Shown: positions 16,387-16,759 of the stretch, piece by piece
How the letters are laid out: each line of letters opens with the position of its first letter
Position numbering within the stretch: position 1 is the first letter of the stretch
NCBI GenBank assembly: GCA_964016885.1
Contig: OZ024758.1
Coordinates: 16,926,001-16,990,000 of the forward strand
Direction: 5' to 3'
Length of the DNA: 64,000 nucleotides
Source: Eledone cirrhosa
Taxonomy: Eukaryota
The notes under the pieces: generated by a model
What the model saw: only the letters and a program-made list of their open reading frames with translations
The model's database searches: none
Told to the model about the DNA's origin: nothing
Program-made: the position numbers and the translations under genes

Positions 16387-16759
16387 AAATAATATAAGAT
16401 CAAAAGATGGTTAAAAGAGTTCCAAGTATTTTATTATGCACATTTCAAAAACAAATATCATCATGGTGTGATATCTGCGTTCTCATCAGATAAAATAGGG
16501 ATACATGATATGAAGCTTAAAAAACACTTGTGAATAGTGAAGTTTTAAATCAACATATGAAACATAATTTAAGATTAAATTATTTTTCATATGTTGATTT
16601 TAAACTTCACTATTCACAAGTGTTTTTTAAGGTTCATATCAGGTATCCCTATTTTATCTGATGAGAACGCAGATATCATACCATGATGATATTTGTTTTG
16701 AAATGCGCATAATAAAATACTTGGAACTCTTTTAACCATCTTTTGATCTTATATTATTT
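16387..16759. repeat. Fold-back palindrome (about 186-bp arms, 2-nt spacer)
   Basis: Arms meet at ataatttaa-ga-ttaaattat (16573-16574). Confidence 0.9.
16650..16719 (+). ncRNA. Minimal type-I hammerhead ribozyme
   Basis: Stem I tattttat/ataaaata; CUGAUGA 16658-16664; stem II gcagatatcat/atgatatttgt; GAAA-U-GCGC-A-UA; predicted cleavage after 16711; mirror copy on the minus strand at 16427-16497. Confidence 0.8.

Follow-up and report, generated by a model that had tools for sequence, protein, structure and literature searches.

A palindrome with a hammerhead motif on each strand in Eledone cirrhosa, a likely Penelope-like insertion into (TA)n

We analysed a palindrome of 373 bases (16387-16759) that carries a hammerhead motif on each strand, within a 64,000-nucleotide stretch of Eledone cirrhosa DNA (the window; contig OZ024758.1, positions 16,926,001 to 16,990,000). 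The palindrome very probably consists of two 5′-truncated copies, arranged head-to-head, of that end of a high-copy repeat which carries the hammerhead. This end is likely the pseudo-LTR (pLTR) of a Penelope-like element (PLE), and the copies were likely placed by a single insertion into (TA)n and have been decaying since. Features of PLE insertions that are matched here are a hammerhead in a terminal repeat, inverted and 5′-truncated copies, a tail at one end and a (TA)n target. The locus works like a PLE insertion, most of the traits that mark one having been found; its layout and its pairing of hammerheads on opposite strands have both been published before. The two motifs are likely an ordinary by-product of PLE-type insertion and, because the layout is the usual inverted, 5′-truncated one, need no functional explanation. 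Taken singly the locus matters little, since the repeat is common, the layout known and the copy decaying. What gives it value is a clean record of PLE insertion, in which each arm ends at one of two family-wide end points.

Layout of the palindrome and its hammerhead motifs

The window is repeat-rich eukaryotic DNA, with (TA)n tracts, many SINE-like copies, two RT-PHD ORFs and a 14-kb satellite. The arms of the palindrome, 16387-16573 and 16574-16759, align with six substitutions, one single-base indel and a mismatch at the loop position. As RNA the palindrome folds with -266.6 kcal/mol (z = -44.6), a stability reached by none of 100 shuffles. Of the six arm differences, four disrupt the pairing whichever strand is transcribed, and no compensating change accompanies any of them; judged from their pattern, these differences look like unselected decay. 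If there has been no gene conversion, the change of about 1.6% per arm would correspond, on the time scale for octopus given in PMC13282606, to a few million years. The repeat element is larger than the palindrome and extends leftward to about 16301. The features of the locus are as follows.

16224-16299, no strand: left side of the probable insertion target, a (TA)n microsatellite; reads of the repeat family enter (TA)n before 16301
16300-16386, minus: 'tail' of about 85 nt that extends the 3′ end of the left copy only, in repeat-family sequence with unbroken family depth
16387-16576, minus: left arm, a 5′-truncated copy of the element end (likely pLTR) with its 3′ end leftward; the family diverges past 16576
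16427-16497, minus: type I hammerhead motif with loop 3 UGUGCA (CpG-decayed), core starting at 16489, predicted cut after 16435
16571-16576, no strand: head-to-head junction, placed by the sequence and by the loose end behind 16576
16575-16759, plus: right arm, a 5′-truncated copy without a tail, which stops at the second end point of the family ((TA)n loose ends at 16384)
16632-16668, plus (mirror 16480-16514, minus): upstream hairpin in which, by prediction, the CUGAUGA core is hidden even within a single arm
16650-16719, plus: type I hammerhead motif with a palindromic AUGCGCAU helix III, from motif search and fold, predicted cut after 16711
16760-16945, plus: SINE-like interspersed repeat of about 186 nt with many copies in the window, from window self-comparison
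16942-17013, no strand: right side of the probable target, a (TA)n microsatellite, from a microsatellite search

On the left side the end of the arm lies 87 nt from (TA)n, and contigs spanning 16304-16404 and 16300-16418 run across the border between tail and left arm. On the right, the gap between arm and (TA)n is 186 nt, the exact length of one SINE-like copy. This repeat, which we label a SINE from its layout, likely inserted later between the right arm and (TA)n. The junction letters TT (16575-16576), about 2 nt, could belong to either copy, the native left one or the inverted right one. Since both flanks are (TA)n, a target-site duplication is unreadable.

The plus-strand motif combines an 8-bp stem I (16650-16657 with 16712-16719), CUGAUGA at 16658, an 11-bp stem II, GAAA at 16700, the loop UGCGCA and UA at 16710-16711. 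The core boxes CUGANGA, GAAA and UH, together with helices I and II, mark a type I hammerhead of the PLE type, and all are present. The palindromic helix III and loop 3 could pair with those of a second molecule: an 8-bp duplex of -10.5 kcal/mol is predicted for the plus copy, and a duplex of -6.0 kcal/mol with wobble pairs for the minus copy, which has lost the perfect helix III palindrome. Our hammerhead descriptor, tuned after the motif had been seen, gave five matches in window positions 1-47400 and one match in one of 150 block-wise dinucleotide shuffles; at a stricter level, reached by both focal motifs, none of the 150 shuffles gave a match. Rfam returned no hammerhead at gathering score anywhere in the window, and none over the palindrome coordinates at E ≤ 10. 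Sub-threshold miRNA-type matches at E ≤ 10, produced by the hairpin, were discarded, as was a weak, sub-threshold RAGATH-1 match at 17061-17149 (E = 8). A pattern scan of metagenomes gave 119 loci that we dismissed as chance, stem I never exceeding 5 bp and BLAST finding no match to the element.

The motif resembles the metazoan PLE hammerheads of type I with minimal or small helix III described in the available text of PMC4209133, with which it shares the CUGANGA/GAAA/UH core, a long helix II and a palindromic helix III and loop 3. Opposite-strand pairs 100-700 bp apart are already reported there for Schistosoma and tied to truncated PLEs. Helix I has 8 bp at our locus, in contrast to 4-5 in the Schistosoma families, and the locus further differs from the hammerheads of that paper in a helix II of 11 bp or more and in the absence of the G10.1-C11.1 pair, which is highly conserved there at the base of helix II but is G·U at the locus and A-U in 32-63% of family depth or reads. 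Because this pair is missing, the motif fails the min-HHR consensus, as far as PMC4209133 sets it out in that text, and is filed only as a PLE-type hammerhead motif.

Four of ten sequencing runs listed were compared with the left arm and left flank (16300-16580). The best run contains only 0.54 of the words and thus comes from a different individual, perhaps a different species, so that some differences between family and locus may be population or species differences. A palindrome with a hammerhead motif on each strand had been proposed in the first-pass annotation and was recovered here by sequence, fold and descriptor, the arms aligning and both motifs being located. Its interpretation of the GUGC loop on the minus strand as a CpG-type change is borne out as well: the loop is derived and the family has GCGC, with G at 16440 in 99% of the depth of run X1 and in 1239 of 1434 reads of run X8. 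Among the variants listed (the best 40 of 78), the sole core-box variant falls at the free N7 position, 16485, and family changes at 16475, 16478 and 16482 convert G·U pairs of stem II to A-U. The displayed family variants, within those 40, respect the hammerhead fold.

Family end points and the route of insertion

The family is present in high copy: the left arm and tail were matched by 4265 contigs in X1 and 5203 reads in X8, and also by 47 and 31 contigs from two other organisms. Its copies pass into (TA)n at two end points. One, supported by 456 reads of X8 and 21 contigs of X1, lies before 16301, the other before 16384 or 16392 (190 reads each in X8); the 16384 end point was also found in 35 contigs of X1 and was seen in runs X5 and X6 too. 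The left arm of our palindrome uses the end point at 16301, and the right arm stops at the equivalent of about 16384. Past 16576 the family runs on as different, non-palindromic sequence (26 contigs in X1, 2 in X6), and the arms are therefore 5′-truncated. Four of the six joints listed change strand (16333/16557, 16396/16544, 16398/16558 and 16431/16557) with 0-3 shared letters, each of these opposite-strand joints being supported by one or two read starts of a RAD library. Six letters common to both arms differ from the X1 majority (15 positions tabulated, among the 40 variants listed), which points to the derivation of both arms from one template.

Near-perfect inverted arms of short length, a TA-rich target and a very high copy number would also suit a non-autonomous palindromic element of the MITE or foldback kind, which moves ready-made and in which the hammerhead is incidental. 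The roughly tenfold fall of family depth near the centre (16560-16579) looks as if most copies were short, in line with such an element; the fall is, however, confounded by the end of the compared stretch and by local divergence. Moreover, the family-wide ends are asymmetric (16301 versus 16384), the family goes on past the centre as non-palindromic sequence, and the inverted joints of other copies lie at four different positions. Fixed symmetric termini with a fixed internal structure, as expected of MITE or foldback elements, were not found in the family, and we consider this origin very unlikely. That the palindrome is a fold-back chimera of one strand, formed in the library or the assembly, appears extremely improbable. 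No read runs across the centre of the locus among the reads listed, the compared stretch ending at 16580; however, the arms differ at seven places, at three of which the right arm carries the family letter and the left arm does not, and the right arm breaks off at one of the family end points, with a SINE of its own beyond it.

The PLE-type insertion that we favour could have proceeded as follows. The protein of an autonomous PLE would nick both strands of (TA)n, and cDNA synthesis would be primed at two internal sites of the element RNA, which lie about 50 and 134 nt beyond the ribozyme cut site. The two resulting cDNAs, both incomplete, would then be linked head-to-head via microhomology of 0-3 nt, about 2 nt at this locus. 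As an alternative to the joining of two cDNAs, a single cDNA might fold back and prime itself, the mechanism favoured for inverted PLE insertions in the available text of PMC3846280; on its own, fold-back offers no reason for the second arm to stop at a family end point. The existence of two end points makes twin priming versus fold-back testable through copy counts. In the parent element, the ribozyme would process the precursor RNA as a dimer or with the help of protein. The locus retains two complete hammerheads only because the truncation point lies about 75 nt upstream of the motif.

Several of these steps have counterparts in the available parts of published work. In PLE insertions, inverted pLTRs often lie head-to-head, and one of the two may bear a tail (PMC3846280; PMC8557442). 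On AT-rich DNA, a purified PLE nicks both strands and extends them, its reverse transcription starts at two internal sites that define the tail, and its hammerhead requires protein (PMC11167929). Our locus resembles the published inverted-pLTR insertions (PMC3846280; PMC8557442) in its head-to-head 5′-truncated copies, its tail at one end, its hammerhead near the 3′ end and its (TA)n target. It differs from them in having no ORF between or beside the arms, and in a tail of about 85 nt, in contrast to 30-40 nt. With PAc (Poseidon of Anolis; PMC11167929) it shares two end points downstream of the hammerhead, defining a tail, and an AT-rich target. By this analogy, the two family-wide end points would fit the two start sites of reverse transcription found in vitro for PAc, although their spacing is larger at the locus. 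The PAc ORF, as described in the available text of that paper, starts inside the hammerhead, whereas none is evident by eye from the motif here.

Pfam was run on 80 of the 81 non-repetitive ORFs of at least 70 aa in the window, one satellite-overlapping ORF being omitted. Only the two RT-PHD ORFs and one sub-threshold zf-CCCH were matched. Both RT-PHD ORFs are of the LINE type and are the only reverse transcriptases among the 80, none of which gave a GIY-YIG match, and no PLE protein gene linked to the family was found among these ORFs; the loose ends of the family cover only 30 letters.

Predicted behaviour of the RNA

Read-through RNA of either direction is predicted to contain one sense hammerhead with the antisense arm upstream of it. 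Imposing the hammerhead fold on the full hairpin costs about 94 kcal/mol in fold prediction. The hammerheads are predicted to be masked, or silent, at the locus, because the antisense arm precedes the ribozyme and pairs with it. The first-pass annotation had suggested just such a transcript, with one ribozyme whichever the direction and about 185 bp of dsRNA that could mask it, and the prediction supports this part of its reading; the cause escaped it, namely that the layout is that of a PLE insertion. Each strand has one sense copy and the antisense arm is made first, and therefore no dimer would form in cis. According to the available text of PMC4209133, short-helix-III hammerheads of such type need a dimer, and min-type PLE hammerheads do not cleave as monomers and cleave weakly as dimers.

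Masking is also predicted within a single arm, where the probability of stem I is about 0, versus 0.83-0.99 for the isolated motif. The upstream hairpin at 16632-16668 was considered as a conserved off-switch and rejected: it is predicted in both arms, yet letters frequent in the family at 16502 and 16482 each disrupt one of its pairs and weaken the pairing.

The long, nearly perfect duplex and the complete core retained in both arms could also be taken as signs of a selected regulatory RNA, in which the hairpin persists because ADAR or Dicer uses it as a substrate, or serves as a switch whose ribozyme is unmasked by editing. In frog and lizard, palindromic repeats and Penelope elements undergo heavy editing (PMC5625713, available text), which fits that reading. 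However, the differences between the arms have the look of unselected decay, with pairing broken on both strands at four of six and compensated at none, and the minus copy is without the perfect helix III palindrome (-6.0 versus -10.5 kcal/mol). The vicinity holds seven comparable palindromes from other families, and in several of these the cut goes through the hammerhead; the 80 ORFs searched with Pfam gave no host gene, a search that short exons would escape. A selected function thus seems highly improbable. The palindromic Harbinger repeats of Xenopus, which are ADAR targets (PMC5625713, available text), resemble the locus as self-contained hairpins without a neighbouring inverted copy. Harbinger is, however, a DNA transposon with a palindromic consensus, whereas the palindrome analysed here appears to have been made at insertion.

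Neighbouring palindromes and wider meaning

Self-BLAST of the window found ten self-inverted stretches. Two of them, 6025-6213 and 22015-22261, consist of paired SINE copies and were not counted, so that eight palindromes remain. In seven of the eight, one end lies at most 1 nt from (TA)n, and the eighth is the focal palindrome, offset by exactly the SINE; for random segments, an end falls within 10 nt of (TA)n in 5-18%. In five of those seven palindromes, a second (TA)n tract is found 18-77 nt from the other end. With the focal palindrome and 27552-28370 set aside, six palindromes remain, 28438-28913 being counted among them, and in four of the six the start of a GAAA-N-UH half-core lies no more than 25 nt from the centre, versus 11.5% per site by chance, in a post hoc comparison. 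Judging from these positions, junctions appear often to fall in or adjoining the hammerhead. Together the palindromes cover about 2.75 kb of 47.4 kb, or about 6% of the non-satellite DNA of the window.

A broader proposal, which we offer tentatively and think rather unlikely to hold as a whole, is that PLE-type insertion mass-produces long, self-contained hairpins genome-wide. A dimeric reverse transcriptase would make two cDNAs from two fixed start sites and join them head-to-head, often at hammerhead stem II; the products would be the source of octopus dsRNA potential and hyper-editing, and would silence their own ribozymes and the parent elements. Octopus has exceptionally high dsRNA potential and hyper-editing, for which the available text of PMC5625713 names no source, and lizard Penelope is heavily edited according to the same text. 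The density of palindromes from several families makes the share of PLE stumps in ADAR/Dicer dsRNA testable. In a literature search that left most subscription journals and repeat databases outside, we found no description of hammerhead-bearing palindromic PLE stumps in octopus and no paper linking PLE palindromes to octopus dsRNA or hyper-editing; published supplementary repeat libraries may already list the focal repeat family.

The palindromes at 6942-7379, 17075-17317, 36873-36990, 35732-36106 and 15403-15854 adjoin (TA)n. In three of these five a GAAA-N-UH half-core follows shortly after the centre, as would result from an inversion within hammerhead stem II. The palindrome at 28438-28913 has arms 98% identical and a one-sided gap of 35 nt to (TA)n. 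At its centre, on the plus strand, 28673-28711 holds a hammerhead motif with the rare U3-A8 core, a variant described in the available text of PMC4209133.

In the stretch 27552-28370, a 310-bp unit occurs twice in tandem without any difference, and each unit carries a type I hammerhead (27891 and 28201); an inverted copy of 188 bp, 100% identical, is also present. From this arrangement the stretch could be a very young partial-tandem and inverted insertion, pLTR or retrozyme-like, and could form a dimer ribozyme. Non-LTR retrozymes, as described in the available parts of PMC7229834 and bioRxiv 10.64898/2026.07.22.740005, are like the focal palindrome in being short, non-coding, low in GC, equipped with a type I hammerhead and related to PLEs. 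They are, however, head-to-tail tandems that can release a monomer, whereas the two arms of the focal locus face each other head-to-head and give each strand a single sense ribozyme. A retrozyme is marked by two or more head-to-tail units with a hammerhead in each; such units were found at 27737-28370, and no tandem was found at the focal locus; the 310-bp tandem is thus a better retrozyme fit than the focal palindrome.

A solo hammerhead motif of another family lies at 36217-36270 (plus), flanked by two (TA)n tracts. Two copies of another repeat family, at 15968-16106 and 36794-36990, are 87% alike; one of them is single-armed and the other palindromic with a one-sided extension of 77 nt. An inverted-end layout also occurs on a non-PLE element: the 3′ end of a LINE (RT-PHD ORF 18042-19775, minus) at 17317-17668 is repeated in inverted orientation and with 98% identity at 19605-19954, beyond a (TA)16 tract at 19572-19603. 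The satellite extends over 14.5 kb (47566-62065) in units of 48 bp, with shorter arrays at 29916-30526 and 44137-44536, and by eye all three resemble a short repeat in the LINE 3′ end (17487-17558). Upstream of the palindromes, 14740-15020 (plus) contains CCAAT-like boxes followed by GT...AG splice-like signals, recognized by eye, and is possibly a promoter with a first exon.
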